From positions 1 through 64,000 of the IMG/VR virus record IMGVR_UViG_3300017917_004503: a stretch of 64,000 bases of DNA; one strand, given 5' to 3'. Position 1 is the stretch's first letter; each line of letters begins with the position of its first letter. The notes below the pieces were generated by a model. The model was not told where the DNA came from, ran no database searches, and worked only from the letters and a program-made list of their open reading frames with translations. Positions 15,145 to 59,215 of this stretch are shown here, piece by piece. Position numbers and translations under genes: made by a program. The stretch is from a virus.

Positions 15145-15612
15145 ATGGAGTCAGAAAATTTAGATCAAGAACAAAACAAAAAAAAATTAGGTGATAAGAT
15201 ATTTGGAGCACATAACAACCCCACTAGGGATACAGATTTCGATGAAACCTTTGAGATAGACCAGGGCCACAAATTTCTAGAAACCCATTATGACGAGGAA
15301 GACTATCTATATCAGAAAAAGTTAGAAGAAGCTGTCTATGAAGCTTTTCAAACTTCTAGATGGTTTCCTTTGAGTTATAAGAAGAAAATACCTAAGGATT
15401 TAATACCACATCTTTTTCAGGAAGTATTAGATAAGCTGGATGGCACTGAATTTACATTTTCTGAAAAATTTGTCTGTATTTGTGACTATGTACAAATACC
15501 CTATGCTAAAGCTTATGAGATCACTCCAATTAAATATAGAGAAATTATAATTAACGAGCTCGAGGTTAAGTATAAAATCCTATCTAAAAAGAAAATTAGA
15601 AGACTTTTCTAA
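15145..15612 (+). CDS. Hypothetical protein, possibly gp33-like late transcription co-activator
   Basis: C-terminal FVCICDYVQIPY...ITPIKYREIIINEL has a gp33-like hydrophobic pattern; function tentative. Confidence 0.35.
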   Translation: MESENLDQEQNKKKLGDKIFGAHNNPTRDTDFDETFEIDQGHKFLETHYDEEDYLYQKKLEEAVYEAFQTSRWFPLSYKKKIPKDLIPHLFQEVLDKLDGTEFTFSEKFVCICDYVQIPYAKAYEITPIKYREIIINELEVKYKILSKKKIRRLF

Positions 15613-23864: not shown

Positions 23865-23865
23865 G

Positions 23866-26800
23866 ATGCCATTAACACCAGGATTACAATTACCCTTTGG
23901 AGTACAACCAGTCAACCCTGTACCGGTTGACACATACTCTGGCCCTTATTCGGGAGTAACTGAATCAGCTGCTCTGAGCTCTGCAAATTCTTCTATACCT
24001 GGAGCTTTAAGATTTCAGTCTTTAGAAGTTAGATTAATATACGGTCCAACCGGATCTGCAGTACCCTATAAATATTGGTATTATGGTGGAACCGGGGATA
24101 GTGATTTAGTTCTTTTTTCAGCTGGTGGATCTGGTGTAACAGGACCAACTGGAGCATCTGGTAGCTCTGGATCATCTGGTAGCTCTGGATCATCTGGTAG
24201 CTCTGGATCATCTGGTAGCTCTGGATCATCTGGAACATCAGGAAGCTCCGGAACATCAGGAAGCTCTGGAACATCAGGAAGCTCTGGAACATCAGGAAGC
24301 TCTGGAACATCAGGATCTAGTGGCTCGTCCGGAACATCTGGTTCGTCAGGTTCTAGTGGTTCAGCAGGAACATCTGGTTCGTCAGGTTCTAGTGGTTCAG
24401 CAGGAACATCTGGATTGTCCGGAGCAACTGGAACCTCTGGATCTAGTGGATCTACCGGAACATCAGGATCATCAGGAACTTCTGGATCTAGTGGATCATC
24501 AGGAACCTCTGGATCATCAGGAACCTCTGGATCTAATGGATCATCAGGATCATCAGGATCATCAGGAACCTCTGGATCATCAGGATCATCAGGAACCTCT
24601 GGATCATCAGGATCATCAGGAACCTCTGGATCTTCAGGATCATCAGGAACCTCTGGATCTTCAGGAACCTCTGGATCTAATGGATCTTCAGGATCATCAG
24701 GATCATCAGGTACTTCTGGATCTTCAGGATCATCAGGTACTTCTGGATCATCAGGATCCTCTGGAACTAGCGGTGTTACTGGTCCAACCGGAGCTAATGG
24801 TATATCTGCTGGACAAGTTTATTATTTCAATGAAAGCCAAAATTCTGATGTATCTGGATATAAGGTTTTATCTATAACCCCGAGTGGGGCAGCTGAACAA
24901 ACAGTAACTACGAATTTAACAGGTCTTCAGCAGAATGTTTTGATTTCTGATTATATTACACCTCAGCTTGGATTTAACGTTATACCTGCAGGAAATCAAA
25001 GATTTCATATTCATCTTTTAAAACCAGCTTCTAACGATAATATTTCTTTGTATGTAGAGATCCAGTTGGCGAATTCGTCTGGAACCCCAATAGGTCCAAC
25101 GATAACATCTAGCGTTGCATCTGTTGGTTGGGTTAGTTCAATAGTTCCAGATACTGTTGAGACTGACATCACTTTATCTACAACTACCATAGATCCAACT
25201 AATAGAATGATAGTTAGACTCTATCTTAATAATAACGACGCAACATCTCACAGCGTTGTATATTATACGGAAGGATCATCATACTATTCTTTCGTTCAAA
25301 CGTCGGTTGGAGCTATAGCAGGAACTAGCGGAACTTCTGGCTCGTCCGGATCATCAGGAAGTTCTGGCTCGTCCGGATCATCAGGAAGTTCTGGCTCATC
25401 AGGAAGTTCTGGATCTAGTGGTCAAGATGGTATTTCTGGAGGTAGACCTTACTTTTTCAATCAGTCTGTTACGCAGACCCCGTTATCATATAAACAACTT
25501 GGACAAAATACTACTGGAGGTATTCAGCAAACAGTAGTCACTAATTTAACATCAAACCAACAAAATGTTTTAGTTGAAAGTTTCATAACTGATGTCGATG
25601 ACCCGTATCTTCTTTTAATCCCACAGGGATTATGGCATTCTTATGTTTATTGGACAAAACCAGCACAAAATGATAATATAACTTATTATTTTACTGTAAC
25701 TAAAAGAACATCAGGAGGGACAGAAACTCTATTGTTTACATCCGATAATAAACAAATTGGATGGGATACTAATAACACTACTCCGGTTGAGGTTGTTGCG
25801 AATGGTGTTGTTCCAACTAACACGTTAAACCTTACCGATAGAATTATAGTAAGTCTATATCTGAATAATAATGAAAATTCCAGTAAAACAGTTACCTTTT
25901 ATACTGAAAATGCAACTTATTCATACATTATAACAACTTTAACAACTCCTTCTGGTACTTCGGGGTCGTCCGGTACTTCAGGGTCTAGTGGCTCTTCAGG
26001 AAGCTCTGGTACTTCTGGATCTAGTGGCTCTTCTGGCACTAGAGGTTCATCTGGTTCATCAGGCACATCTGGTTCATCAGGCACATCTGGTTCATCAGGC
26101 ACATCTGGTTCATCAGGTACTTCTGGACTTGCTGGTATATCAGGGATCAATGGATCTGATGGATCCTCAGGATCCTCAGGTTCTAGTGGAGTGACCGGTG
26201 CATCAGGGTCTTCTGGAAGCAGCGGATCTAGCGGAACGTCTGGATCTTCTGGAAGCAGCGGAACGTCTGGATCTTCTGGAAGCAGCGGAACGTCTGGATC
26301 TAGTGGAACATCCGGGTCTAACGGGTCTTCTGGAAGCAGCGGATCTAGTGGAACTTCAGGATCTAGTGGAACATCTGGATCTTCTGGAAGCAGTGGAACC
26401 TCAGGCTCTTCTGGTTCTAGTGGAACCTCAGGATCTTCTGGAATTAGTGGTTCACAGGGACCAACCGGTTCTACTGGATCTGTTAGCGGACTTGTTCAAT
26501 ATGCAGGTTTAACTTTTACCAGTGGACCTGGATCAGATCTACAAACAATATATAATACCTCTTTGGATCCATCAATAACAGTAGGTACTACCGTAGGCGG
26601 TATAGCAGCTGGTACTACCGCAGGATTTTTATTTGGAAAAAATTTAGTCCAACTTTTTGATGACATATTATTTCCAACTTTATTGCCAACTTACACAATA
26701 CCAACTATAACTTTAACTTCTTCTGTTACTGGAATTTATGAAATCGGAGCTACACTATCTCCAAACCTAACAGCTTCTGGAACTAAAAATGATGCTGGAG

Positions 26801-27513
26801 CTTTTAGTTATCTTGGTATTTCTAGATTACCTAATGGAACTAGTGCGGTCCAAATTGGATCTACTGGATCACCAACGATAGCCTCTGCTACAGCAATACC
26901 GTCACAATTTGGATATGCTAGTCCTAATAACCCGAATTATTCTTATAGCTTCATAAAGGGTGATTCACTCACTGGTCCAGCTCCACTTTCAGGAAATAAT
27001 AGTACATTAGTTTATTCTGCAACTGGTAGCTATAGTGCAGGTTTAGCTAAGCAGAATAATAAAGGTGCAACAGATACACGCACTCCTTTAGTCAGAAGTA
27101 CCAGCGCTCCTCAAGATTCTTCAACGAATTTTGCTGCTTCAAATGTAACTTTGACCGGATATTATCCATATTATTACGGTAAAAGTTCAACACAGCAAAC
27201 AGCTTCTAACATCGTGTCTATCATTCAAAGCGGAACTGGATTTACTAAAGTCGTTGCATCTGGATCTGGATCTTTATCTATGGCTTTCAACGCTTCTAGT
27301 GAATGGCCTTGGTTTGCAATTTTCAGCGGATATTCAACTAAAACAGCTTGGTATGAAACACCTTTAAATAACGGAAGTATTGGATCTCCGACAGATTTGT
27401 TTGCTTCGCCAACGACACTTTCGATTATTTCGCCTGATGGTTATTGGGTTGTTACTTATAAAGTTTACCCTTCAAATAAAATAACCACATTGGGTACAGC
27501 CTCAATTTCTTAA
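23866..27513 (+). CDS. Long fibre protein with three (GSS/GTS)n blocks and an internally duplicated globular domain
   Basis: Repeat blocks at about 24151-24773, 25321-25422, 25954-26460; duplicated domain YYFNES..YKVL..EQTVTTNLT..QQNVL / YFFNQS..YKQL..QQTVVTNLT..QQNVL. Confidence 0.7.
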   Translation: MPLTPGLQLPFGVQPVNPVPVDTYSGPYSGVTESAALSSANSSIPGALRFQSLEVRLIYGPTGSAVPYKYWYYGGTGDSDLVLFSAGGSGVTGPTGASGSSGSSGSSGSSGSSGSSGSSGSSGTSGSSGTSGSSGTSGSSGTSGSSGTSGSSGSSGTSGSSGSSGSAGTSGSSGSSGSAGTSGLSGATGTSGSSGSTGTSGSSGTSGSSGSSGTSGSSGTSGSNGSSGSSGSSGTSGSSGSSGTSGSSGSSGTSGSSGSSGTSGSSGTSGSNGSSGSSGSSGTSGSSGSSGTSGSSGSSGTSGVTGPTGANGISAGQVYYFNESQNSDVSGYKVLSITPSGAAEQTVTTNLTGLQQNVLISDYITPQLGFNVIPAGNQRFHIHLLKPASNDNISLYVEIQLANSSGTPIGPTITSSVASVGWVSSIVPDTVETDITLSTTTIDPTNRMIVRLYLNNNDATSHSVVYYTEGSSYYSFVQTSVGAIAGTSGTSGSSGSSGSSGSSGSSGSSGSSGSSGSSGQDGISGGRPYFFNQSVTQTPLSYKQLGQNTTGGIQQTVVTNLTSNQQNVLVESFITDVDDPYLLLIPQGLWHSYVYWTKPAQNDNITYYFTVTKRTSGGTETLLFTSDNKQIGWDTNNTTPVEVVANGVVPTNTLNLTDRIIVSLYLNNNENSSKTVTFYTENATYSYIITTLTTPSGTSGSSGTSGSSGSSGSSGTSGSSGSSGTRGSSGSSGTSGSSGTSGSSGTSGSSGTSGLAGISGINGSDGSSGSSGSSGVTGASGSSGSSGSSGTSGSSGSSGTSGSSGSSGTSGSSGTSGSNGSSGSSGSSGTSGSSGTSGSSGSSGTSGSSGSSGTSGSSGISGSQGPTGSTGSVSGLVQYAGLTFTSGPGSDLQTIYNTSLDPSITVGTTVGGIAAGTTAGFLFGKNLVQLFDDILFPTLLPTYTIPTITLTSSVTGIYEIGATLSPNLTASGTKNDAGAFSYLGISRLPNGTSAVQIGSTGSPTIASATAIPSQFGYASPNNPNYSYSFIKGDSLTGPAPLSGNNSTLVYSATGSYSAGLAKQNNKGATDTRTPLVRSTSAPQDSSTNFAASNVTLTGYYPYYYGKSSTQQTASNIVSIIQSGTGFTKVVASGSGSLSMAFNASSEWPWFAIFSGYSTKTAWYETPLNNGSIGSPTDLFASPTTLSIISPDGYWVVTYKVYPSNKITTLGTASIS
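24151..24773 (+). repeat. Coding tandem repeat (GSS/GTS), includes 4 perfect 18-bp units
   Basis: GGTAGCTCTGGATCATCT x4 at 24160-24231, then GGAACATCAGGAAGCTCT units. Confidence 0.92.
25954..26460 (+). repeat. Coding tandem repeat (GSS/GTS)
   Basis: GGCACATCTGGTTCATCA and GGAAGCAGCGGAACGTCTGGATCTTCT units. Confidence 0.9.
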
Positions 27514-27557
27514 TTTTCTTGTTAATCTGATTATTCTATGGAAGAGTTGGAAACCTG

Positions 27558-27565
27558 AATATATA
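27558..27565 (+). promoter_or_regulatory. Late promoter motif
   Basis: AATATATA before S74 fibre gene. Confidence 0.6.
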
Positions 27566-27613
27566 GTATTGAATAAATCAACAAAACAAATAAGACCGAA
27601 CTCCCTGTAATAT

Positions 27614-29851
27614 ATGGCAATAAATTTAAGTGATAATATTTTAGCAAAAACCACTGCACCCGCAGATGCTAAATATGGACCTTACTCTGGGGGTAGTACT
27701 GCTGCTGCAATAAATGCAGCGACCGGTTATCTTATCTCATCATATAGATACGAAGGTCTGACTATAGGTTTACAAGTAGGTGCTAACCCGATTGTAGAAT
27801 ATTGGTTTTACGGAGGAATTTTAGATGCAAATTTAACTCAAAAGGTTGTTTCTGGCTCGAATGGTACCTCTGGTTCTTCAGGATCTAGCGGAACATCGGG
27901 TTCTTCAGGATCTAGTGGTACCTCTGGTTCTTCAGGTTCTAGTGGAACATCAGGTTCTTCAGGATCTAGCGGAACATCAGGATCCTCTGGTTTGGGTGGA
28001 TCCTCAGGAACTTCTGGACTTGCCGGTATATCTGGTGTTAATGGATCCGATGGAACATCAGGTTCTTCAGGATCTAGCGGGACTTCAGGTTCTTCAGGGT
28101 CTAGTGGGACTTCAGGTTCTTCAGGATCTAGTGGGACTTCAGGTTCTTCAGGATCTAGTGGGACTTCAGGTTCTTCAGGATCTAGTGGGACTTCAGGTTC
28201 TTCGGGATCTAGCGGAACATCAGGATCTAATGGTTCTTCAGGATCTAGCGGAACATCTGGTTCTAATGGTTCTTCAGGATCTAGCGGAACATCAGGTTCT
28301 TCCGGGTCTAGTGGATCTAGTGGATCGGCTGGAACAGCTGGAGCCCCTGGAGTAGATGGCGCATCTGGAACATCTGGAACAGCGGGTTCAAGCGGTTCCA
28401 CCGGTACATCTGGATCTAGTGGTTCTTCTGGTACATCTGGATCTAGTGGTTCTTCTGGTACATCTGGATCTAGTGGTTCTTCTGGAACTAGAGGATCTTC
28501 AGGCTCTTCTGGAACTAGTGGTTCTAGTGGATCCAGTGGTTCTAGTGGTTCTAGTGGAACATCGCCAACGGTATCTGGATCTAATAATCAGATATTAACA
28601 TCTGATGGTTCAGGTGGAATTGTTTCTGAAACTAATTTAGAGTTTGATGGAAATAAACTATCGGTATTATATCAATCTGGTGATGAAGGTGGTGAAATAT
28701 TTTTAAATAAAGCAGTTACAAATACAACATTAAATGGTGGTATAACAATAGATTCATATCAAAATAAATTAAGATTTTTCGAACAAGGAGGCACTGCAAG
28801 AGGAGCTTATATAGATCTAACAGCATGTGCTGCTGGAGTTGGAACCGATTTATTAAGCGGTGGTGGTGGAGGCGGATCTAATGGATCTTCCGGATCAAGC
28901 GGATCGTCTGGCACTTCCGGATCAAGCGGATCGTCTGGCACTTCCGGATCAAGTGGATCTTCTGGAACCAGAGGTTCATCAGGTTCATCAGGTTCATCAG
29001 GTTCATCAGGAACCAGTGGATTGACTTGTACCTCTTATACAGTAACAGAAACCGCTAACTCCGGTGCAAGTTTCGATTATGAACCCTGTGGATCTCCCGG
29101 AACGGTTATTGGTTATATTCTAACTGCTTTGCAATCTGTTACTTTGTGTGCGGTTAACGGAACAGTAGTTCAGACTAGCGGAACTATATCAATTACAGAT
29201 AACGGTTTATGTTCTGGATCCTCGGGATCATCTGGCTCTTCTGGATCCTCGGGATCATCTGGCTCTTCGGGGACCTCAGGATCATCTGGATCTTCTGGTA
29301 CCAGAGGATCATCAGGATCATCAGGTACATCTGGTCAGGCAGGCGCAAGCGGAACTGTTAATACTATATCTAAATTTACATCATCTACAACAGTAGGTAA
29401 TTCTAACGCCACTGACGATGGCACTACATTCGAGATATCTACATCTAATTTGAAAGTTACATCTAGCGTAGCTGTAGGATCTATTACAGCTTCGGGTGTT
29501 TCTGGTCGAATTGATGCTTCGAATGACGTCGTTGCTTTTTCTACATCTGATATTAGATTTAAAGAAAATATTAAACCGATAGAAAATGCTCTAGATAAAA
29601 TTCAAAAAATTGGAGGATACACTTTCGATTGGAAAGACGATCAAAACCTTAAGGTACTCCATGGATTTTCTGGACCTGATGTTGGTGTAATAGCTCAAGA
29701 GATTGAATCGATATTACCAGAAACTGTAAAAACTAAACCTAATGGATTTAAAGGTGTAAAATACGAAAAAATCGTACCTTTATTAATTCAAGCAATAAAA
29801 GAACTTTCTCAAGAAGTTGAAGATTTGAAAAAAATCAAAAATATACAATAA
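27614..29851 (+). CDS. Trimeric fibre with (GSS/GTS)n blocks and C-terminal peptidase S74 intramolecular chaperone
   Basis: SDIRFKENIKPIENALDKI, GVIAQEIE..LPE.V, VKYEKIVPLLIQAIKEL. Confidence 0.85.
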   Translation: MAINLSDNILAKTTAPADAKYGPYSGGSTAAAINAATGYLISSYRYEGLTIGLQVGANPIVEYWFYGGILDANLTQKVVSGSNGTSGSSGSSGTSGSSGSSGTSGSSGSSGTSGSSGSSGTSGSSGLGGSSGTSGLAGISGVNGSDGTSGSSGSSGTSGSSGSSGTSGSSGSSGTSGSSGSSGTSGSSGSSGTSGSSGSSGTSGSNGSSGSSGTSGSNGSSGSSGTSGSSGSSGSSGSAGTAGAPGVDGASGTSGTAGSSGSTGTSGSSGSSGTSGSSGSSGTSGSSGSSGTRGSSGSSGTSGSSGSSGSSGSSGTSPTVSGSNNQILTSDGSGGIVSETNLEFDGNKLSVLYQSGDEGGEIFLNKAVTNTTLNGGITIDSYQNKLRFFEQGGTARGAYIDLTACAAGVGTDLLSGGGGGGSNGSSGSSGSSGTSGSSGSSGTSGSSGSSGTRGSSGSSGSSGSSGTSGLTCTSYTVTETANSGASFDYEPCGSPGTVIGYILTALQSVTLCAVNGTVVQTSGTISITDNGLCSGSSGSSGSSGSSGSSGSSGTSGSSGSSGTRGSSGSSGTSGQAGASGTVNTISKFTSSTTVGNSNATDDGTTFEISTSNLKVTSSVAVGSITASGVSGRIDASNDVVAFSTSDIRFKENIKPIENALDKIQKIGGYTFDWKDDQNLKVLHGFSGPDVGVIAQEIESILPETVKTKPNGFKGVKYEKIVPLLIQAIKELSQEVEDLKKIKNIQ
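27853..28563 (+). repeat. Coding tandem repeat (GSS/GTS), includes near-perfect 27-bp units
   Basis: GGTTCTTCAGGATCTAGTGGGACTTCA units from 28061 to about 28200. Confidence 0.92.
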
Positions 29852-36813: not shown

Positions 36814-38658
36814 ATGTTTTCTGATAATATAAAAGACGGAAAAAAAGATGTTCTTCAGGATGAAAGTAACGTTTGGAGTACTTTAAGAGTAAATGATCTT
36901 TTAAGAAGAATTGATGAGGAGGGTCTGGATTATAAAGAAGTTGATAATCCTTTTCATGATCAGAATCCTGAATTAAAGAGAGCAAATATCTTATGGGAAT
37001 ATACTCCCGAAGAGATAATGGAGATTAAAAAATGTGCTGAGGATGTAACGTACTTTTCTAAGTATTGTCAGGTAATGACTGACGAGGGACTTTCTTATAT
37101 TAGATTGAGAGACTACCAAGTTTCTGTCCTTAGAGAATATCAAGCAAACAGGTTTAATGTTTTTTTAGCCCCACGACAGGTTGGTAAATCGATTACATCT
37201 TCAATTATCTTAGTGTGGTATTTGTTATTCAATCATGATAAAAACGCCATGATTTTAGCAAACGTCGGTGACACTGCAGAAGAATTAATGGATAAGATCA
37301 AGTCGATTATAAAGGGCTTGCCTTTCTTCCTTAAACCTGGAATGGTTGTGAATAATGTTATGTCGATGAGATTCGATAACGGATGTAGAATTTTAGCAAA
37401 AACTACTACCAAAACTTCAGGTATTGGTTTTACTATTCACTTTTTGTATATGGACGAATTTGCCCATATCAATCCAAATTTCATCGAAGCTTTTTTCAGA
37501 TCAACTTATCCAACAGTATCATCTTCTAAAGTCTCTAGAATTATTATCACATCAACACCTAACGGCCTGAATAAATTTCATGAGATTTATCAAGGTGCAC
37601 TAACAGGAGAAAATAGTTTTAATCCCATCCGGGTTGATTGGTGGCAGGTTCCGGGCAGGGATGAGGCTTGGAAACAAAAAGAAATTGGTAACTTAGGTAG
37701 CGAAGAGCTGTTCAACCAGGAGTATGGTAATCAATTTCTGAGCTCGTCTTCCCTCCTTTTAGGATCTAATGAGCTTTTGAAAATTAAAGCTAATCAGACT
37801 GATTATATTTGGAAGGAGATTGACGTCTTACACAATAATGATATAAAATATGAAAATTTATTGTGGCATCCGAAATTTAATCTCGATTTAGCAGATTCTC
37901 CTGGTAAAAAATTTGTTTTAACGATCGATATAAGTGGTGGAGTTAAGGGTGATTTTACAGTTGTTAATATTTTTAAAGTTACACCTTTACCTAAAAATAA
38001 AATTATATCTTTGACTGAATATGAAGATGAATCTGATTTTTTCGGATTGGTTCAGATTGGTATTTTTAGAGATAATGAGATTAAATTAGAAGACCTTGTT
38101 AAACTTGTAAAAGGCTTAGTCAAATCTTTGGGTATAGATAGAGTCAAAATGGCTATTGAAATGAATTTCAAGGGTGAGCTTCTTTATGATAAACTAATTT
38201 CCGATGATGACTATTACGACGAGATGTTTTTATTTACTAAACACTCAGAAGGATCTAAAGTAATGAAGCCAGGAATTAAGTATAATGAAAAGAATAAATT
38301 AAAGTATTGTGAATTGCTGAGAAGTCTGGTTAGAGAAGGAAAAATATTAATAAATGATAAAAAATGGACAATTCCTGAGCTTTTTACATTTGGACTCAAT
38401 AATAGAGGAACATATTCTAGTCAAACTGGACACGACGATGTTGCTATGACTTTGGTTAACCTCCCTGCCCTTTTTGATGGTTATGATTTCAATCAATTGG
38501 TTGGTGATGTGTTCGATGAGCTAGAAAACGAATACAAAGAATTGATTATCCAAAAATTAGAGATGAATTTAAATGGTGATCCCGAAGACCCGTATTCTTC
38601 AAGAGGACCCGTTACCAAGGATGGCAAAAATTATAGCGGATTCAGCAATTTGATGTAA
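36814..38658 (+). CDS. gp17: Terminase large subunit
   Basis: LRDYQ, APRQVGKS, LYMDEFAH, ITSTPNG, FNQEY, nuclease TIDISGG..GDF, HDDVAM. Confidence 0.96.
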   Translation: MFSDNIKDGKKDVLQDESNVWSTLRVNDLLRRIDEEGLDYKEVDNPFHDQNPELKRANILWEYTPEEIMEIKKCAEDVTYFSKYCQVMTDEGLSYIRLRDYQVSVLREYQANRFNVFLAPRQVGKSITSSIILVWYLLFNHDKNAMILANVGDTAEELMDKIKSIIKGLPFFLKPGMVVNNVMSMRFDNGCRILAKTTTKTSGIGFTIHFLYMDEFAHINPNFIEAFFRSTYPTVSSSKVSRIIITSTPNGLNKFHEIYQGALTGENSFNPIRVDWWQVPGRDEAWKQKEIGNLGSEELFNQEYGNQFLSSSSLLLGSNELLKIKANQTDYIWKEIDVLHNNDIKYENLLWHPKFNLDLADSPGKKFVLTIDISGGVKGDFTVVNIFKVTPLPKNKIISLTEYEDESDFFGLVQIGIFRDNEIKLEDLVKLVKGLVKSLGIDRVKMAIEMNFKGELLYDKLISDDDYYDEMFLFTKHSEGSKVMKPGIKYNEKNKLKYCELLRSLVREGKILINDKKWTIPELFTFGLNNRGTYSSQTGHDDVAMTLVNLPALFDGYDFNQLVGDVFDELENEYKELIIQKLEMNLNGDPEDPYSSRGPVTKDGKNYSGFSNLM

Positions 38659-38733: not shown

Positions 38734-41700
38734 ATGGCAAATAAGGTTAAAATAGACTACTCACAGTTTAGAGCATCAGGGGTTTACACCCTCGAATTTG
38801 ACGCGTCACAAAACGTCATTTTAACTTCTCAAACTATCAGATTAGTTGTTGGGTTCTCTAATAAAGGACCTTTTAATACACCGGTTTATATCCCAGATCC
38901 AACTACAATGGTATCAATTTTTGGTGACATTGACCGATCTCTAGAAAACAGAGGATCTTTTTTCCAAAGATCTATTCTTACCTGTCTAAATGCTGGTCCT
39001 GTTTTCGCTTTAAATCTTTTAAAATTAAATGACGATCTAGAGTCTGCTAGTCCGGATGAAGTTGATTACAGATCATTCTCTGTTGATACTGAAGAATACA
39101 ACGGTGTGTTAACCAATGAATTATACTCTTCTTACTATAACAAAGAAAGATTTTGGTATGCCGATCCTGCATACTTCTTAGCTACTCTTAGCGTTGCTGA
39201 TACCGGAAAAATTCTTAGCTTAACCAATCTTGGTAAATCGCCATGTAGTGTTATTATTAGAAAGTCTACAGATTCATCGAAGCCCCTCAAAGGATATGAT
39301 ATTTTTGCAATAGACTGGTACGGAGCTAACAACGTTCCTACTTTCATGCACCCATATGATTATATGTCTGATTATTTCATTGACATAATCGCTGTATCTG
39401 GTAATTGGACAAATTATTCTGCTTTGTCTGTTGATCCCGAGTGGGCTCAATATTTCACACCGAATGGATTTATAAAGAGTCAAATTGATAACTTCTTATC
39501 TAACCAGAACGTAAATATTGTAATTTCAGTCACTGGATGTATTATCCCTGATTTTGTTGATCTTAATGGGGTGAATCAATACATACAGACATTAGTTAAT
39601 AATGATACACCTTCTACCGGTTTATTCTGTGCTATTGACGAACAAGCTTTTGATGATATTTGTCAAAATCCTTCTAAAATCGATTTAGTTGGTAATCACT
39701 TAATTGATGAACTTACAGGTAATAGGGATTTATCTACTCCTAGAATTAATTTCTTAAGTTATGATCAAGTTCTTGTAGCTGATTATCTCTACACCCAAAA
39801 CGTAATAGGTGTAACCGGTTCTACTGGTTTTATTGGCCCTACTGGAGTTACTGGATATAGCTCAGGGGTTAAAATCGGAACTCTATTCGCTATAGGTGCT
39901 GGACAAACAGCTGGTGTTGCATATCAATCATTTGAACCCTATGACTCTAGTGCTTATGACGCAGGATCACACTATTTGCAAACATCAGGAACTGGTGGAA
40001 CTGCAGGATATTTTGTTACCTCTACTCAGAAAAATGAGCTCAAGACTTTCTTAACTGTTAACTCATCAGATGATCAAAAATTTGTTTTAGGTATCGTTAA
40101 TGGAATGTCTGGAGCAACAGGATCTTTAGTAAGCCAATTTTCTAATTTTGATCTTGTTAAATTGAAAGTAACAGGAACTAAAGATGTGAGCGGAGAACTT
40201 AGAATTTTCTGGTCTCATCCTTTAGATACTTCTTTCTATAGATCACAAGGAATTACGGTTACCCCTGTTTATCAAGTTACTTCTTATAACACTGGTGCTT
40301 CAGGATCAAATAAACCATTCTATACAGATTCATATCAATTTGGTGATTCTGATTACATTGATATTGTGAGTGCAACAACCCCTGACGGTGTTACTGGACC
40401 TAACGCTCCACTTGGTGTTTCTAATGTTCTTCAAGGATATAATTCTTCAGATTTATTCCAAGATTCTAAATATGATGAGATTGCAGATGGCGATTTAGTT
40501 TGGTTAAACTCTTCAGGATCTAGTGTTAATTACCTAAGTTTTGAGGCAGGAGTTGATAGAGATCAGTTTGATTTCGTGAATGTTAGATCTCATACCAATG
40601 TTTCTTTATCCGAAACAACTATAAATAATATAGCAAACTTTGCTACGATGTATGCTTCTGATAATATAGGTTCACCTGTATCTTCTCAGAAATTCGACAT
40701 CATATCACAAGAAGGATCTATAAATTCTTTCATAGAATGTACTAGAATTGATACAACTTCATTTTATGTAAATGAAGATTCAAATGGAAATGTGCCTTTC
40801 TCTGTTGGAGATTTGGTAGTTTCCACTGATCTTGATATCTGCGTTCCAGCTTCAGGAAATCAGCAAAACAGATTGTCTAAAATTACTGTAGTAGCCCAAA
40901 CCACAACAGCAGGACAATATAGAGTGGTTTCTTCAAGACCTGTATTATTCTATTCAAGCGCAGGAACTGGATTCAGAGTTCAAAAATTCCAATCGATAGC
41001 TCAGTTTACTAGATCTTTTGATTTTACATATCTTTCAGGATTTACAATGAAAGAAAGTCACAGACCAAATGGAAGTGACGCTAGAATATCTGAGATATTA
41101 AATGTCATGTATGACACCAATATAGCTAAAACACTTGCTTCTAAGGATGTTATTTCATTTAGATATATTGTTGACACTTTCTCTGGACAGATTCTTCCTA
41201 ATTCGAAGTATCAGCTTTCAAGACTGGCTAAATTGAGACAACAGGCTTTGGCATTAATCAATGCTCCTTCAATGGCTCAGTTCCAGGCAAGTACAGATCC
41301 TAGATTTACTAATGCTCCTACCGCAGCTAATCCGTACCCTAGTTTGAATACTTCTTATATCGTAGACGGAGGTAATCTCTCATTAAATCCAAGCTATACA
41401 TTTAGCTTACCTTCTGAAGAAGAAGGATCTAAATTTGCAGCTTTCTATTCTCCTTATATTACGATCAGAGAAACTAACAGAAATATAAACGTTCCACCAT
41501 CAGCGATGGTTTCTAATAATTTCGTTAGAAAGTTCGCAAACGGAGAACCTTATGCTATTATAGCAGGTCAGAAAAGAGGTATATTAAGTGGAGGCGGAAA
41601 TATAGTAGGTGTAGAATATGACTTCACTGACGAAGATAGAGGAAATCTTGAACCTTTTGGTATTAATCCAATTATCAAGAGAAGAGGAGTTGGAGTGGTT

Positions 41701-42081
41701 ATTTTCGGTAATCAAACAGCTTACCAACAAGTGAATTCAGCCTTCAATCTTGTACACGTTAGAGATTTGCTTATTAGTGTAGAAACCGATGTTCAAACAA
41801 TTTTATCTAACTATCTCTTTGATTTCAACGAGGATAGTATTAGACTCGAGATCAAGACTTTGGTTGATAATTATCTTGACGGTGTAAGAGCAGGAGGAGG
41901 TATTTATCAATACCAAACAATCATGGATGCTTCTAATAACACACCAGCAATTATCGATATGAATATGGGTGTAATAGATGTTATTATTGAACCTGCAAGA
42001 GGAATACAGAAATTCATCAATAGAATTACAGTTACAAGAACTGGAGGAATCTCTTCTGGAGGATTTATCCAATTCGTGTAA
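38734..42081 (+). CDS. gp18: Contractile tail sheath protein with large insertion
   Basis: SGVYTLEFD, VGFSNKGPFNTP, PPSA, AGQKRG, INPI, FGNQT, VHVRDLL, CDA-like MDASNNTP..ID. Confidence 0.92.
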   Translation: MANKVKIDYSQFRASGVYTLEFDASQNVILTSQTIRLVVGFSNKGPFNTPVYIPDPTTMVSIFGDIDRSLENRGSFFQRSILTCLNAGPVFALNLLKLNDDLESASPDEVDYRSFSVDTEEYNGVLTNELYSSYYNKERFWYADPAYFLATLSVADTGKILSLTNLGKSPCSVIIRKSTDSSKPLKGYDIFAIDWYGANNVPTFMHPYDYMSDYFIDIIAVSGNWTNYSALSVDPEWAQYFTPNGFIKSQIDNFLSNQNVNIVISVTGCIIPDFVDLNGVNQYIQTLVNNDTPSTGLFCAIDEQAFDDICQNPSKIDLVGNHLIDELTGNRDLSTPRINFLSYDQVLVADYLYTQNVIGVTGSTGFIGPTGVTGYSSGVKIGTLFAIGAGQTAGVAYQSFEPYDSSAYDAGSHYLQTSGTGGTAGYFVTSTQKNELKTFLTVNSSDDQKFVLGIVNGMSGATGSLVSQFSNFDLVKLKVTGTKDVSGELRIFWSHPLDTSFYRSQGITVTPVYQVTSYNTGASGSNKPFYTDSYQFGDSDYIDIVSATTPDGVTGPNAPLGVSNVLQGYNSSDLFQDSKYDEIADGDLVWLNSSGSSVNYLSFEAGVDRDQFDFVNVRSHTNVSLSETTINNIANFATMYASDNIGSPVSSQKFDIISQEGSINSFIECTRIDTTSFYVNEDSNGNVPFSVGDLVVSTDLDICVPASGNQQNRLSKITVVAQTTTAGQYRVVSSRPVLFYSSAGTGFRVQKFQSIAQFTRSFDFTYLSGFTMKESHRPNGSDARISEILNVMYDTNIAKTLASKDVISFRYIVDTFSGQILPNSKYQLSRLAKLRQQALALINAPSMAQFQASTDPRFTNAPTAANPYPSLNTSYIVDGGNLSLNPSYTFSLPSEEEGSKFAAFYSPYITIRETNRNINVPPSAMVSNNFVRKFANGEPYAIIAGQKRGILSGGGNIVGVEYDFTDEDRGNLEPFGINPIIKRRGVGVVIFGNQTAYQQVNSAFNLVHVRDLLISVETDVQTILSNYLFDFNEDSIRLEIKTLVDNYLDGVRAGGGIYQYQTIMDASNNTPAIIDMNMGVIDVIIEPARGIQKFINRITVTRTGGISSGGFIQFV

Positions 42082-42122: not shown

Positions 42123-42677
42123 ATGGCAGGATTACCACATTATCAGAACTCACTCTCTGCAACCAATAGGTTTGAACCTGTTTACCTCAACCAGTTTGAG
42201 GTAACAGTTATACCACCAGCGGCTGTTTTGGGAGGAGAGATACTTTTACAGCATGTTACCAAAGTAAGTGGCTTATCTTTGGATAAGAATCCTGGATTAG
42301 TTACTCAGAAGTATAAATTCGCTAAAAGAAACTATGCAGGATCTAAACCGGATAATACTTATATGGATCTAAGCTTAAGTTTTACAGTTAACTTGAACGA
42401 TGACAATTCAATGTATGTTTTTAAGACTTTAAGACAATGGAGTGATTTGATCTATAACCCTTTAACCGGTGCAATGGGATTAAAGAACGATTATGTAGGG
42501 ACTTTAGTTGTTTCTATTTATAATAAACAGGGAGATGTTTTCAGAAGGATAACTTGCAGAGATTGTTACCCAACAAAGCCTGTTAATCCTATGAATCTAA
42601 ATTACACCTCGACTGACATTTATAAAATAGATGACATGACTTGGGCGGTTGATTACTGGGAAGATCTATTCTTATAA
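42123..42677 (+). CDS. gp19: Tail tube protein, paralog 1
   Basis: Follows sheath; NQFEV, RNYAG, LRQWSD, YP, DYW gp19-like pattern. Confidence 0.8.
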   Translation: MAGLPHYQNSLSATNRFEPVYLNQFEVTVIPPAAVLGGEILLQHVTKVSGLSLDKNPGLVTQKYKFAKRNYAGSKPDNTYMDLSLSFTVNLNDDNSMYVFKTLRQWSDLIYNPLTGAMGLKNDYVGTLVVSIYNKQGDVFRRITCRDCYPTKPVNPMNLNYTSTDIYKIDDMTWAVDYWEDLFL

Positions 42678-42694: not shown

Positions 42695-43270
42695 ATGGCA
42701 GGTTTACCACATTTTACAAATTCGAGAGCTGCGATAAACAACTTTGAACCTGTTTATCTAAACCAATTTGAGGTCATTATAAACACACCACCTGGAATTC
42801 CAGATTCCAGCACAACATTTAAAGGTGAGACTATTTTAACCCAACAGGTGAAATCTATTACAGGTTTAGCCGTTGATATTCTTCCGGCTTCTAATGTTGA
42901 GCAAAACTATAAGTTTGCCACAAGGAGATATGCTGGAGGAGAACCTTCAACATCCGATATGACACTCACTATGGAATTTGAAGTTAACTTGAACGATGCA
43001 AATTCGATGACGACATACAAGATATTAAGACAATGGAGTGACTTAATATACAATCCATTAACTGGTGCAATGGGACTTAAGACAGATTATGTTGGATCTA
43101 TGGTTATATCTATTTTTAATAAAAGGGGAGACGTTTTCAGAAGAATCAGAATTCCTTCTTGTTTTTTAAGTGAGGCTATAAATCCAATGGAACTAGATTA
43201 CGAAAACCCTGCTATATACACAGTCAGTACGTCTTGGATATGTGATTACTGGGAGGATCTTTTCCTATAA
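42695..43270 (+). CDS. gp19: Tail tube protein, paralog 2
   Basis: Shares MAGLPH, FEPVYLNQFEV, LRQWSDLIYNPLTGAMGLK, DYWEDLFL with upstream gene. Confidence 0.8.
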   Translation: MAGLPHFTNSRAAINNFEPVYLNQFEVIINTPPGIPDSSTTFKGETILTQQVKSITGLAVDILPASNVEQNYKFATRRYAGGEPSTSDMTLTMEFEVNLNDANSMTTYKILRQWSDLIYNPLTGAMGLKTDYVGSMVISIFNKRGDVFRRIRIPSCFLSEAINPMELDYENPAIYTVSTSWICDYWEDLFL

Positions 43271-46927: not shown

Positions 46928-47539
46928 ATGCAGCAATCTAAGGAAACCAACATTCAAAAATTAGCTGAAGATTTTATCAGCAAAAAAACCGACAAATCCT
47001 TTGCGGATCTTTTTAATCGTCTCAAACCCGGGGTTTCCAATCATTGTTTTCTCATTCTCAAGGACACTGAGCTTGCAGAGGATGCCTTTTTAAACACCAT
47101 GTCTAAAGTTTGGCAGAAGATAGATCAGTATAAATTAGAGAGAGGTAATTTTTCTACCTGGTGTTACAATATTGCCCGAAATGAATCTCTTTTACTAATG
47201 AAATCCAGAAAAAAACTGGTTAACCATGAAGAAATAGATTTAGAGTTTCTATCATCTAAAAACACCCTTGGGGAAATAGGCGGAGTTTACACAATAGAGG
47301 ATGATCCAGCATACGCATTCTTCAGTGAGGAGAACACCATCGACTCTGTCTATGAGTCTGTTTTGGACGAGATCAGATCATTACCCGAAACCTATAGAGA
47401 TATTATGATAGACCGTGAGATCCACGGTATGAAATATAAAGATATAGCTGATAAATATGGCATAAAGAAAAGATCGATTGCTACCAGAATCAGAAGAGCT
47501 AGAGGTAGAATAAGAAAGAAGATTGACGAGAAACAATAG
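46928..47539 (+). CDS. ECF-type RNA polymerase sigma factor
   Basis: AEDAF...KVW..I..Y, FSTWCYNIARN (region 2); LPETYR..M..R...GMKYKDIA......SIATRIRRAR (region 4). Confidence 0.92.
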   Translation: MQQSKETNIQKLAEDFISKKTDKSFADLFNRLKPGVSNHCFLILKDTELAEDAFLNTMSKVWQKIDQYKLERGNFSTWCYNIARNESLLLMKSRKKLVNHEEIDLEFLSSKNTLGEIGGVYTIEDDPAYAFFSEENTIDSVYESVLDEIRSLPETYRDIMIDREIHGMKYKDIADKYGIKKRSIATRIRRARGRIRKKIDEKQ

Positions 47540-54503: not shown

Positions 54504-54863
54504 ATGGCTAAGGATTACGTAAAAAATAGCGATCTAATGGTTGCTATAATAGAATCAAAAAAAGCAGGCAAGCTAACACCCGATGCCATTGCTATGTTTG
54601 GACTTATGATACAGGGAATATCAAAGAAAATGGCATATAAGGATCCAGAAGATAAAGAGGACTGTATGGCTTTTGCTATGGAGGATCTTTGCAAATATTG
54701 GGATAGATTTAATCCTGAAAAATCAAATAACCCTTTTGCTTATTTCACACAAATTGCAAAAAATGGATTTGCAAAGGGATGGAAAAAAATACATCCACCA
54801 AAAAGTCCAAAAACTATACCGTTTAGTCATATTACAGGAGAAGATAACACATATAACATCTAA
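54504..54863 (+). CDS. gp55: Late transcription sigma factor (gp55-like, very short)
   Basis: YVKN..L, Y....KED, RFNPEKSNNPFAYFTQIAKNGF. Confidence 0.85.
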   Translation: MAKDYVKNSDLMVAIIESKKAGKLTPDAIAMFGLMIQGISKKMAYKDPEDKEDCMAFAMEDLCKYWDRFNPEKSNNPFAYFTQIAKNGFAKGWKKIHPPKSPKTIPFSHITGEDNTYNI

Positions 54864-54865
54864 AG

Positions 54866-55351
54866 ATGACCGATATTAAAAAGGTAAAACCTAATGGAGA
54901 GTATAAGTCTGGTTTATATGAACCACAAAATCCAGAAAAGTACATAGGAGATATTCACAATATCATATTTAGATCGTCTTGGGAATATAGATTTTGTGTA
55001 TACTGTGATACTAATGAATCAATATTAAAATGGAGTTCAGAACCTCTTAAAATACCGTATTACAATCCTCTGGATAAAAAGGAACATGAATATAATGTTG
55101 ACTTTTATGTCAGAGTTTTAAAAGAATCTGGTGAAGAACAAGAGTGGATCTTAGAGATTAAGCCCGAAAGACAAACAAAAAAACCGGTATTTGAAGGAAT
55201 AACTACTTTACAGAAACTGAAATCGTATAATCATAATATGCAGATCTGGATTACGAACCAATCTAAGTTTAAAGCTGCAAAACACTGGGCTGAGAAAAGA
55301 GGTTTTAGATTTGGTGTCGTTGATGAAAATTTCTTATTTAAGAGTAAATGA
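54866..55351 (+). CDS. gp4: Head completion nuclease (gp4, TnsA-like fold)
   Basis: PQNPEKYIGD, FRSSWE, CD.N..I.KWSSE..IPY, EIKP, NQSKFKAA. Confidence 0.88.
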   Translation: MTDIKKVKPNGEYKSGLYEPQNPEKYIGDIHNIIFRSSWEYRFCVYCDTNESILKWSSEPLKIPYYNPLDKKEHEYNVDFYVRVLKESGEEQEWILEIKPERQTKKPVFEGITTLQKLKSYNHNMQIWITNQSKFKAAKHWAEKRGFRFGVVDENFLFKSK

Positions 55352-55947
55352 TTCCATATTCACAGGAGGTGCTTCAGTATAAGAATTCGTATAAAAATTT
55401 ATCTGAGGTTGTTAGTAAAACTAACTCTAAATTTTCAGAAAAGTATTATAGAGATGCTAAACCCGAGAAACCCTTCTCTCTACCGTTTATACCTGGTCAA
55501 ATTTATAGCTTTTTCTATAAGACAACAAGCAAAATAACTCCGGAAAGAACTTTTATAAACAGAAATCCTGTTGTTCTTTGTACTGAATCTTTTCAAAACA
55601 AAGAAGGTGAGCTTATACTCAAGGGTATAGATTTAATAACAGTTCCTCCTGATTTGAGAATGATTATTCTTGAAAGAATTTATAACAGTTTCTATTATAA
55701 TATAAACCCAGGTTCCTACGAGAACCCAAAACCTATATTGCTTAATCACGAAACATTAAAGAAAATACTTACAGACACTGGATACTCGAGTTCATTATTT
55801 GGTTTTAGAACCAAATTTTTTGGTGAAATCTTTACCGTCGATGTTAAAGATTGGATCATGTTACCCTATCTAACAGAATCACTCATAGAAGGCACGAATT
55901 TACAAGGGATATATACGACATATAAATCGAAATTAATCCGAGAATAA
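55348..55947 (+). CDS. DNA end-protector-like protein (gp2-like)
   Basis: PGQIYSFFY...P.V...GIDL..VPP..R pattern; adjacent to gp4. Confidence 0.5.
   Translation: MIPYSQEVLQYKNSYKNLSEVVSKTNSKFSEKYYRDAKPEKPFSLPFIPGQIYSFFYKTTSKITPERTFINRNPVVLCTESFQNKEGELILKGIDLITVPPDLRMIILERIYNSFYYNINPGSYENPKPILLNHETLKKILTDTGYSSSLFGFRTKFFGEIFTVDVKDWIMLPYLTESLIEGTNLQGIYTTYKSKLIRE
55908..55915 (+). promoter_or_regulatory. Late promoter motif for portals (within gp2-like gene)
   Basis: GATATATA about 50 nt before portal 1 start. Confidence 0.55.
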
Positions 55948-55962
55948 ACACTAAAAAGAAGA

Positions 55963-57561
55963 ATGGCCGGTTTTGTAAATAATAACGATCCCCAACAGTC
56001 ACCAGTAATTACCAGAATTAGAGATTCTGTGAGAAAGCTGAGCACTTTCGGGATGAAGTATGATGATATGGTCATACGAAACTCTCAGGCAGTTGGTGTT
56101 ACTGAAGCAGCATTCTTAAACAAGAATAAATCCAATGTTGAGGATGAAAGTATGCTATGGACTCTTGCGAAGCAAGATATTACATCAAAGCAGTATGTTT
56201 CATATTTCGATAAAGATTATAAGGGTAAAAGAGATTACCTAAGAAAATTCTCTCTTAATCCTGAAATAGAATGGGTTTTAGACACTGTGTGTGATGAGAC
56301 TATTTCTTACGATCCTGCCAATTTTTTTGCTTATCCTGATTTTTTAGACCTGTCAGACATCAACGAAAAACTAAAGGATTCTCTTTATGAGACGTATCGA
56401 AAACTATATGATGTTTGGGGATTCTCTGATGATATAACTGCATGGCAGTATTTTAGACAATTCCTCGTTGATGGATTTCTTTGTTTCGAAATTATCTATG
56501 ATAATGAGGGAAAGAATATAATAGGATTTAAAGAATTAGATCCTGTTACTATAGTACCTAGCGTAGAAAAGCAAGTAGACGGAAGTTTTTTAAATACCTG
56601 GACCCAATTTCCACAGGATCCAAGAAGAAGACGTGTTCTATATGATCCCCAGATTATTTATATCTCGTATGCTAAGGGCAATTCAATTTCCAGAATAAGT
56701 TATATCGAAAGATTAATTCGTCCTTATAATATCCTTAGAATCATCGAATACACCAGAATTATCTGGTCTGTTATGAATGCTTCTTTTAAATTGAAGATGA
56801 CTGTTCCTATTGGTACTAAATCCCAACAAAAAGGAATGCAAACTCTAGGAGAATTAATGAGCATCTATAAGGAAGACGTTCAATTGAATGATGAAAGTGG
56901 TGAATTGTTTATAGACGGAAGACCTAAAATTCAGTTTTACAAGAATTACCTAATGCCTTCTGGAGTAAACGGAACGCCAACAATTGAACCTTTAACAACA
57001 GAGGGTCCAAACTTAAATGACCCTGCTCCTTTATCATATTTCTTTGATAAGTTTGTACAAGAATCTAAGGTACCTCCATCAAGATTCACTGGTCCAGATG
57101 GAACTAATGCTTCGACCTACACAAATGCTGCTGAGGGATTGGATAAAGAGGAGATTAGATTTGCTAAATTTGTAGAAAGACTTAGATCTATATTCCAGGA
57201 GATATTAACTAAACCTCTGTGGATACAAATGGCTAAAAAATATCCTGAGTTAGAGAAGGACTTTATGTTTAAGAGCCAGCTAGGTCTCGATTATTTTTCA
57301 GATAACCCGTTTAAAATAAACCAAGAAATTGAAGTAATTAATAAAAGAAAAGAATCAGTAACAGCTATGTCAGGTTTACTTGATGATGAGGATAAACCCT
57401 TTTTCTCAGTTCCTTTCCTAATTGAAAATTTCTTAGGAATTTCTAGACAGGATATTGTAGCAAATAAAGAAGCCAAAGAAAGGAAAGAGAAGGAGAAAAA
57501 GAAAGATAGTAAAAAAGATGAAGGCGAAAAAGAGGGTGGAGAGGAAAGCATAACTTTATAA
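55963..57561 (+). CDS. gp20: Portal protein, paralog 1
   Basis: FRQFLVDG, GFKELDP, SYIERL, YF..K..VPPSRF, EEIRFAKFVERLRSIF. Confidence 0.88.
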   Translation: MAGFVNNNDPQQSPVITRIRDSVRKLSTFGMKYDDMVIRNSQAVGVTEAAFLNKNKSNVEDESMLWTLAKQDITSKQYVSYFDKDYKGKRDYLRKFSLNPEIEWVLDTVCDETISYDPANFFAYPDFLDLSDINEKLKDSLYETYRKLYDVWGFSDDITAWQYFRQFLVDGFLCFEIIYDNEGKNIIGFKELDPVTIVPSVEKQVDGSFLNTWTQFPQDPRRRRVLYDPQIIYISYAKGNSISRISYIERLIRPYNILRIIEYTRIIWSVMNASFKLKMTVPIGTKSQQKGMQTLGELMSIYKEDVQLNDESGELFIDGRPKIQFYKNYLMPSGVNGTPTIEPLTTEGPNLNDPAPLSYFFDKFVQESKVPPSRFTGPDGTNASTYTNAAEGLDKEEIRFAKFVERLRSIFQEILTKPLWIQMAKKYPELEKDFMFKSQLGLDYFSDNPFKINQEIEVINKRKESVTAMSGLLDDEDKPFFSVPFLIENFLGISRQDIVANKEAKERKEKEKKKDSKKDEGEKEGGEESITL

Positions 57562-57562
57562 G

Positions 57563-59215
57563 ATGGCAGGATTTTTAGATCTATTTAAACCAAACGAATC
57601 TGCTTTAGGTAACATTCTTAGAAACCTAGGCAAAGTCTCCAAATTTGGGATGGAGTACGATGATATGGTTGTTCGTAATTCTCAAGCAATAGGTAAAAGC
57701 GAAGGATCCTTTTTTAATCAGCAGGGGACTGGGTTTACTCAGGATGATGCTTTTTATTGGACTCTTTCTTATCAGGATACGAAGGTAAGAAAATACATAG
57801 CTTATTTTGATAAGGATTATATTGAAAAAAGAAACTTTCTGAGAAAATTTTCACTCAATGGTGAGATAGAATTTATTTTAGATACTATCACTGACGAATG
57901 TATAACCTATGACGATAGAAATTTTTTCGCAAATCCTTCTTTCATAAATCTTGATTTGAAAGAGAAAATTCTAAATAAAATAACTTCACATTACAATCGC
58001 CTTTATAACATTTTTGGATTTCAGAATTCTATTTTGGCTTGGCAATTATTTAGACAGTTTCTTATTGATGGATTTTTAGCTTTTGAAATAATATACGACA
58101 ACAAAGGAAAAGAAATTATTGGATTTAAAGAATTGGATGCAACCTCTTTGCAGCCAGCAGTAGAAAGAGTTGGTGAAAATGAGTACAAACAATTTTGGAT
58201 TCAATACCCAAAGAATCCTCAGATGACTAGAAAACTCACTAATGAACAGGTTATCTATATTTCTTATGCCAAGGGTAATAGTATTTCCAGAGTTAGCTAT
58301 ATAGAAAGATTAGTAAGATCATATAATATTTTGAGAATCATGGAGAATTCCAGGGTAATCTGGAATGTTATGAATGCTTCTTATAGATTAAAGTTTGTAA
58401 TACCAACTGGAAGCCAGTCTCCTCAAAAAGCTATGCAAACATTAGGACAGTTAATGTCAAATTATAAAGAGGAGATAAGCATAAATGATGCTTCTGGTGA
58501 ATTGACTGTAAACGGAAGACCTAAAGTCCAATTTTACAAAAATTATTTATTTCCTGAAATGAATGGACAATCTCCACAAATTTCATCACTAAATCCTTCC
58601 GGTCCTGATTTTAACGTTATGGAAAATGTTGTTTACTTCTATAATAAGTTAAAAATGGACTCTAAACTTCCTTATGCTAGATTTGCAGCTAGAAGTGCAG
58701 GTCCTTCTAATTATAAGGTAAGTATTGATGCTCTTGAAAGAGATGAGATACGTTTTGAAAAGTTTCTCCGTAGATTGAGATCTATATTTCAAGAAATTTT
58801 GGTTAAACCTCTTTATATACAAATGTGTTTAGATTTTCCTGAATTATCTAGAGATAGAAGCTTTAAGGTTAATCTTGGATTAGATTTTCACAGAGAAAGT
58901 GAATTTGAAGAAATGGTTCAGCTTTCGAATTACACTAAAAGAAGTGAATTTATCAAAGGACTCTATGAATTTAAAATTAAGGCTGGTGATGAGGAAAAGC
59001 CATATTTTGATAATGACTTTCTAATTCAGAGATTTCTAGGTCTGACTCCAGATCAGATTAAAATGAATGAAGAATATAAGAAGAAAGAGGAAAAACAAGC
59101 ACCACAAGCTAAACCTGCCAGTGGAGAAGGCGAATCACCAGAAGGAGAAACGTCAACCCCTCCAGAGGGAGAAGCTCCAGAGGGAGAAGCTCCGGAACCA
59201 GAAGTAACACTTTAA
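57563..59215 (+). CDS. gp20: Portal protein, paralog 2
   Basis: FRQFLIDG, GFKELDA, SYIERL, YFYNKL...LPYARF, RDEIRFEKFLRRLRSIF. Confidence 0.88.
   Translation: MAGFLDLFKPNESALGNILRNLGKVSKFGMEYDDMVVRNSQAIGKSEGSFFNQQGTGFTQDDAFYWTLSYQDTKVRKYIAYFDKDYIEKRNFLRKFSLNGEIEFILDTITDECITYDDRNFFANPSFINLDLKEKILNKITSHYNRLYNIFGFQNSILAWQLFRQFLIDGFLAFEIIYDNKGKEIIGFKELDATSLQPAVERVGENEYKQFWIQYPKNPQMTRKLTNEQVIYISYAKGNSISRVSYIERLVRSYNILRIMENSRVIWNVMNASYRLKFVIPTGSQSPQKAMQTLGQLMSNYKEEISINDASGELTVNGRPKVQFYKNYLFPEMNGQSPQISSLNPSGPDFNVMENVVYFYNKLKMDSKLPYARFAARSAGPSNYKVSIDALERDEIRFEKFLRRLRSIFQEILVKPLYIQMCLDFPELSRDRSFKVNLGLDFHRESEFEEMVQLSNYTKRSEFIKGLYEFKIKAGDEEKPYFDNDFLIQRFLGLTPDQIKMNEEYKKKEEKQAPQAKPASGEGESPEGETSTPPEGEAPEGEAPEPEVTL

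Follow-up and report, generated by a model that had tools for sequence, protein, structure and literature searches.

The window analysed here comprises the first 64 kb (64,000 nucleotides) of a 151,373-bp linear viral contig from IMG/VR (IMGVR_UViG_3300017917_004503; CheckV completeness ~52%). On its plus strand lie two consecutive genes for portal proteins of the T4 gp20 type: paralog A, of 532 amino acids (aa), at 55963-57561, and paralog B, of 550 aa, at 57563-59215. Both open reading frames (ORFs) have zero internal stops and begin with MAGF. A single nucleotide separates them, the junction at 57559-57565 reading TAA g ATG, an arrangement that could permit translational coupling. Each protein ends in a low-complexity tail, K/E-rich and charged in A (57466-57558, ending ITL) and composed of acidic P/E/G/A sequence in B (59069-59212, ending VTL). 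Aligned over their full length by BLASTP, the two proteins share 261 of 534 positions (49% identity) with 8 gap positions. An earlier note, written from the sequence alone, had described two intact genes 1 nt apart, colinear from MAGF to ITL/VTL and clearly diverged, and it was correct in every detail.

Profile searches placed both proteins in the same family. Against Pfam Portal_T4 (PF07230; profile cut-off 22.9 bits), A scored 186.4 bits (1e-54; model positions 7-430 of 433) and B 219.5 bits (9e-65; positions 6-433), and both matched the portal protein family PHROG 213 (phrog_213; 3e-54 and 1.8e-63, respectively). They were the sole portal matches within the 151,373-bp contig. AlphaFold2 (AF2) monomers were modelled from a 58-sequence alignment, with a predicted local distance difference test score (pLDDT) of 68.6 for A and 67.3 for B and a predicted template modelling score (pTM) of ~0.58. 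The wing was confident, the clip and tunnel loop were weak, and the order of secondary-structure elements was the same in A and B. Top Foldseek matches were T4 gp20 chains (A, E 7.8e-17; B, E 2.5e-20; probability 1.00; TM score ~0.5). The gp20 entries 9MKB, 9LU7, 6UZC, and 3JA7 matched with E values of 1e-12 to 1e-20, and other phage portals came next. As modelled, both A and B have a portal fold of the gp20 type.

The pair is not peculiar to this contig. Three scans of IMG/VR yielded 246 loci with portal homologs, 187 of which held two full portal ORFs, and at every one of these (187/187) an A-type gene came first and a B-type gene second on the same strand. These loci reduce to 86 distinct protein pairs, with 1-23 nt from A stop to B start in 86/86. 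Loci with a single copy belonged to other lineages or had the portal at the contig edge. Complete genomes of the clade, closed by direct terminal repeats (DTRs) and measuring 373, 430, and 434 kb, had exactly two portal matches each, whereas near-complete genomes of a neighbouring clade (294 and 429 kb) had exactly one. Its recurrence at 187 related loci, among them three complete genomes bounded by terminal repeats, excluded chance or an assembly artefact as the source of the A-then-B pair. No decay of either copy was seen in relatives, save for a 5-kb contig (L245, from the deep paired lineage) whose A copy, at 1527-3161, has a single TAG in frame. This copy reads …ATG CCC TAG TCT… where its close relative L244 has TCA (Ser), and it is the only interrupted portal in ~190 loci. 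The TAG may be an error, a recent nonsense mutation, or a sign of TAG recoding as in Lak phages, whose portal gene has 6 in-frame TAG codons.

The closest annotated relatives are metagenomic huge phages. LR756500.1 (462 kb) has a portal 45-46% identical to both A and B; further ones are LR records of 634-735 kb and the Lak phages. Across these single-copy portals (LR756500.1, LR756502/4, LR745206, LR756501, and the Prevotella Lak phages), identity ranges from 34 to 46%. The MAGF start is common to LR756500 and most single-copy IMG/VR relatives, and the 634-735 kb records begin with MASY. Like A and B, the single-copy huge-phage portals have a low-complexity C-terminal tail, either charged or G/A/P/E-rich. 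They differ in being present once per genome and in having an unsplit, ancestral channel pattern, different parts of which passed to A and to B. LR756500, LR756502, LR745206, and Lak-C1 have one portal each, and LR756501 has one plus a 101-aa fragment. The same was true of GenBank at large, where phages with a gp20-type match (2,089 records) had one full-length copy each and the only second match was the 101-aa fragment of LR756501/LR756503. In LR756501.1 (735 kb; L169) this frame, at 15166-15351, lies far from the portal gene and matches only the C-terminal end of Portal_T4 (374-431, 22 bits).

The history of the pair was reconstructed with IQ-TREE (LG+C20, quick search) from 63 representatives (clustering at 85% identity). 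The first copies all formed one clade, with a support of 99 in the Shimodaira-Hasegawa-like approximate likelihood ratio test (SH-aLRT), and all second copies formed another (97). Such a split into two stable clades had been named by the earlier note as a check on its reading. The A and B clades were sisters (SH-aLRT 90) and nested among single-copy huge-phage portals, their grouping with the three nearest single-copy lineages having a support of 97. They also mirrored each other internally, down to a deep L225/L238-type lineage whose copies are only 51-55% identical to those of the window. The sister relationship, the mirrored topologies, and the nesting among single-copy portals indicate one ancient tandem duplication followed by co-divergence of A and B.

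The timing of this duplication depends on the nearest single-copy lineages, L210, L212, and L213. They lay outside A+B in the best tree (SH-aLRT 90), although an approximately unbiased (AU) test did not reject their grouping with A (p = 0.215). This result leaves room for an older duplication, with B lost later in the L210/L212/L213 lineage. Such a history is unlikely as their portals carry mostly ancestral states at the 31 sites that discriminate A from B (3/10 A-derived and 1-2/8 B-derived states). These states favour a split before the duplication as the better reading.

The two copies evolve at equal rates. The ratio of nonsynonymous to synonymous substitutions (dN/dS; Nei-Gojobori), which the earlier note had also proposed as a check, was ~0.02 in both A and B, with medians of 0.014-0.027 in every dS bin among 99 genome pairs with unsaturated synonymous distance. 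Synonymous sites were saturated between most clade members, including comparisons with the window's own A, and nearly so in those with its B. The dN of B followed that of A with a slope of 1.03 (r = 0.98) over 3,655 genome pairs, which are phylogenetically non-independent. Within one genome, A and B were 0.47-0.54 identical in 86/86 genomes, and sliding windows over these 86 genomes, used to look for gene conversion between A and B, found no window of raised identity in the folded body. Two stable clades, a dN/dS near 0.02, and the lack of decay in relatives together show, on comparative grounds, that both portal genes are functional and non-redundant. In some genomes, such as L053 and L082, the A and B tails are near-identical to each other over their final 10-20 residues (both end …GETPAVTI in L053), which may reflect local concerted evolution or a shared partner for the tail tip.

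To locate the differences between A and B, the domain limits of T4 gp20 (PMC4493910) were transferred by alignment at roughly 20% identity. Both paralogs keep the MAGF start and all domains (wing, clip strands, crown, and C-terminal tail), and the charged, low-complexity tails of both clades mostly end in (V/I/F)T(L/I). The regions of closest resemblance between A and B include the clip strands and stem alpha5. Conserved columns identical in both clades number 133, and only 9 columns are fixed for different residues, of which 6 fall in the stem/tunnel loop (6/66 versus 3/489; Fisher p = 1.4e-4). The divergence is concentrated in the DNA-channel lining, namely, the inner clip, channel loop, helix alpha7, and tunnel loop, which span residues 328-395 in A (56944-57147, plus strand) and 327-393 in B (58541-58741, plus strand). 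In this segment, A-B identity drops to 0.30-0.41, while identity within each clade (0.62-0.78) is about the protein average. The ratio of A-B to within-clade identity is 0.44-0.58 here against 0.73 overall and 0.80-0.83 in the wing, clip, and alpha5.

Each copy carries its own signature in this segment. When the single-copy clade is used to polarise the changes, 10 derived states fall to A, across the N-terminus, alpha5, clip, channel loop, and alpha8, and 8 to B, all inside the channel loop, alpha7, and tunnel loop. The tunnel loop of B is basic, with a charge of +3 to +4 (mean +3.1) and zero acidic residues in 56/56 representatives. The corresponding charge ranges are 0 to +2 for A and -2 to +2 for the single-copy relatives. 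In A, helix alpha7 is acidic, with a mean charge of -1.8; it is about neutral (~0) in B and the single-copy portals. By composition, the divergent alpha7 and tunnel loop, which contact the neighbouring subunit in T4, have shifted in opposite directions (A alpha7 -1.8, B loop +3.1). These comparisons indicate that A and B have specialised in a complementary way. Copy A scored 35-40 bits below B and the single-copy relatives against Portal_T4 in the window and in genomes G006, G007, and G008; this contrasts with the near-symmetric stem lengths (0.23 versus 0.17) and derived sites (10 versus 8) of the two clades.

We propose that a gp20-type portal gene was duplicated in tandem in an ancestor of this huge-phage clade (complete genomes of 373-434 kb) and that both paralogs have since been kept as functional portal subunits. 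The changes in B fell in the channel lining and include a newly basic tunnel loop devoid of acidic residues; those in A fell at positions in stem alpha5 and the clip, and helix alpha7 became acidic. The two would now most likely build one mixed dodecamer, perhaps an ordered A6B6 ring in which two kinds of tunnel loop alternate in the DNA channel. A and B are probably co-expressed since they lie on the same strand, in fixed order, 1-23 nt apart at 187/187 loci. A fresh duplicate of a homo-oligomer co-assembles by default, and continued co-expression favours keeping it so; this default, together with the probable lasting co-expression of A and B, points to a shared ring. In T4 gp20 the clip beta-sheet is the main bond between subunits (PMC4493910), and the tunnel loops of adjacent subunits touch and influence subunit number (PMC4493910). 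We see no sign that A and B have been insulated from each other because the clip strands, that main bond, are among their most similar parts. The opposite charge characters, which arose at the very loops that touch in T4, also argue for a shared ring. That A and B are specialised subunits of one mixed ring is the reading we favour, with modest confidence. An obligate, strictly alternating A6B6 hetero-dodecamer with C6 rather than C12 symmetry is a far more tentative proposal, and we regard it as doubtful.

Several points weigh against a mixed ring. All the comparative evidence would fit two separate homo-dodecamers equally well, and both the contact between A and B and the presence of both in the virion are predictions. 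The domain mapping rests on the distant alignment to T4 gp20 (~20% identity), the AF2 monomers reach only moderate confidence (pLDDT 67-69), lowest in the clip and tunnel loop, and the case for charge complementarity is built on composition rather than on modelled contacts. To our knowledge, no tailed phage has a heteromeric portal. The most serious competitor is one in which A and B do not mix and form two separate homo-dodecamers, giving either two kinds of particle or a true portal plus a second structural ring, for example, a stacked or internal one that nucleates a core. A strictly conserved channel signature in each paralog is what one would expect of an internally uniform ring, and the known portals are all homo-oligomers. 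However, with the genes 1-23 nt apart in every genome the two proteins would be made together, and keeping them apart would need incompatible interfaces, yet the clip strands and alpha5 are among the parts most alike. Twelve B loops would, moreover, bring a charge of at least +36 and zero acidic residues into one constriction. As T4 has one portal per head nucleation, two types of ring would also mean two populations of virions, with no evident benefit. We consider separate rings rather unlikely. The earlier note had offered a heteromeric portal or two specialised vertices or functions as its interpretation; this is supported in part. The checks it had named on the clades, the dN/dS, and decay in relatives came out in its favour and speak for two functional, non-redundant paralogs, and the two specialised vertices gained no support of their own.

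Only one copy could instead be the virion portal and the other a non-structural protein, such as a chaperone, a regulator or competitor of terminase or neck docking, or a decoy for host sensors. Portal proteins of phages are known to set off certain bacterial immune sensors, and the lower Portal_T4 score of copy A, found in every genome checked, is in line with such a role. A decoy or regulator would, however, be expected to shed parts or evolve faster, and neither copy has given up a domain, the MAGF N-terminus, or the C-terminal tail motif; the two share an equally low rate and dN/dS and near-symmetric derived changes. This makes a non-structural copy improbable. Finally, tandem duplicates commonly have a neutral origin, and the second gene might be a redundant dosage duplicate or a recent or artefactual one without any functional split. 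At 49% identity, from a duplication older than lineages with orthologs only 51-55% identical to those of the window, with conserved paralog-specific signatures, no gene conversion, and the pair present in complete DTR genomes, this explanation is effectively refuted and its likelihood is negligible.

Few features of tailed phages and herpesviruses vary as little as the homo-dodecameric portal, and models of DNA packaging, tunnel-loop gating, and the symmetry mismatch with capsid, motor, and neck assume twelve identical subunits. No description of a duplicated or heteromeric phage portal turned up in full-text literature searches. Likeness of the pair to T4 gp20 (PF07230; 3JA7, 6UZC, 9MKB, 9LU6/9LU7) lies in the near-full-length profile match, the order of secondary-structure elements, and the best structural match, and extends to the surrounding module, with gp55, gp4, and gp2 homologs upstream and genes in the order large terminase subunit (TerL)-sheath-tube. 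The difference is that gp20 is single copy in T4, whereas here there are two genes, whose products are ~20% identical to gp20 and have paralog-specific channel loops. A duplicated head gene is found in T4 itself, where gp23, the major capsid protein, and its paralog gp24, at the pentameric vertices, take complementary positions in one assembly. These are, however, geometrically distinct sites (hexamers versus vertices), whereas in known phages the portal ring has only equivalent positions; splitting the portal would introduce a new symmetry (C6) instead of filling an asymmetry that is already there.

Another analogy is offered by hetero-oligomers derived from duplicated homo-oligomers, including the proteasome alpha/beta rings, CCT, MCM2-7, the Lsm rings, and the c-ring of the V-ATPase. 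The route proposed for the portal is the same: a self-assembling ring subunit is duplicated, and its paralogs go on co-assembling and then become mutually dependent. Co-assembly has been demonstrated for those rings, whereas for the portal pair it is a proposal. We know of no viral portal that has taken this duplication route to a hetero-ring, and the present clade could be a viral example of a homomeric ring turned heteromeric. Strong selection has maintained two specialised portal subunits while the lineages diverged deeply (to ~50% identity between orthologs), and a split exactly in the elements that line the channel is a natural experiment on loop function. In an A6B6 ring, basic loops of B would alternate with acid-containing loops of A around the DNA channel, and no earlier portal would have had C6 in place of C12 symmetry. 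In T4, 12-fold gives way to 6-fold symmetry in the neck, where the gp13 dodecamer joins the gp14 hexamer (PMC12929587), and an A6B6 ring would shift this step up into the portal. The "C6" label of T4 portal-neck structures was considered as a sign of alternating gp20 and dropped, the 12-to-6 step being that of gp13/gp14 (PMC12929587).

The gene neighborhood of the portal pair is that of the head/packaging module of a tailed phage. Directly upstream, all on the plus strand, are genes for a gp55-like late sigma factor (54504-54863; 119 aa), a gp4-like head completion protein (54866-55351), and a gp2-like DNA end protector (55348-55947), a set of three that matched PHROG 234/218/429. They are tightly packed, with a 2-nt gap between gp55 and gp4, a 4-nt overlap between gp4 and gp2, and 15 nt between gp2 and portal A. 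TerL (36814-38658, plus strand) and the tail sheath (38734-42081, plus strand) lie with the tail tube 13-19 kb upstream of the portals in an order (17-18-19...20) that resembles T4. Genes for a DNA ligase, a gp44-like clamp loader, a guanylate kinase, and an RNase H-like exonuclease follow 3' of the pair, and the remaining window holds T4-like replication/recombination genes and collagen-like tail-fibre genes.

The sequence before the B start is A/T-rich (…ataaaaATG) and without a well-placed Shine-Dalgarno motif, both in the window (57540-57562) and in 86 relatives, a pattern that would be compatible with a Bacteroidota-type host like that of the related Lak phages. Scans for sigma-70-type promoters and terminators around the A-B pair gave no more sites than shuffled sequence, and the T4 late-promoter motif TATAAATA was not enriched (8 occurrences in the window versus 9.6 expected).

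The only other clean pair of tandem paralogs on the contig is formed by the tail-tube genes, just 3' of the sheath gene on the plus strand (42123-42677 and 42695-43270). Their products (184 and 191 aa) are 55% identical and the genes lie 17 nt apart. Two tube copies were present in each of the 3 complete genomes with paired portals and one in each of 4 genomes with a single portal; the deep paired lineage is represented by contigs of insufficient length to show whether the tube gene is doubled there. Both duplicated proteins, portal and tail tube, form rings that line the DNA conduit. An A6B6 portal may be linked to this parallel doubling of the tube gene, and one shared branch may still account for the association of the two duplications.

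Two further features of the window were noted. Besides the gp55-like gene at 54504-54863, it has a second sigma-factor-like gene, which encodes a 203-aa protein of the sigma-70 family (46928-47539) and lies 8 kb upstream. The region 21288-29851 has a GC content of 0.41 against ~0.33 and coincides with three collagen-like tail-fibre genes (858, 1215, and 745 aa); this GC-richer block is probably an effect of Gly/Pro-rich repeats rather than a sign of foreign origin.

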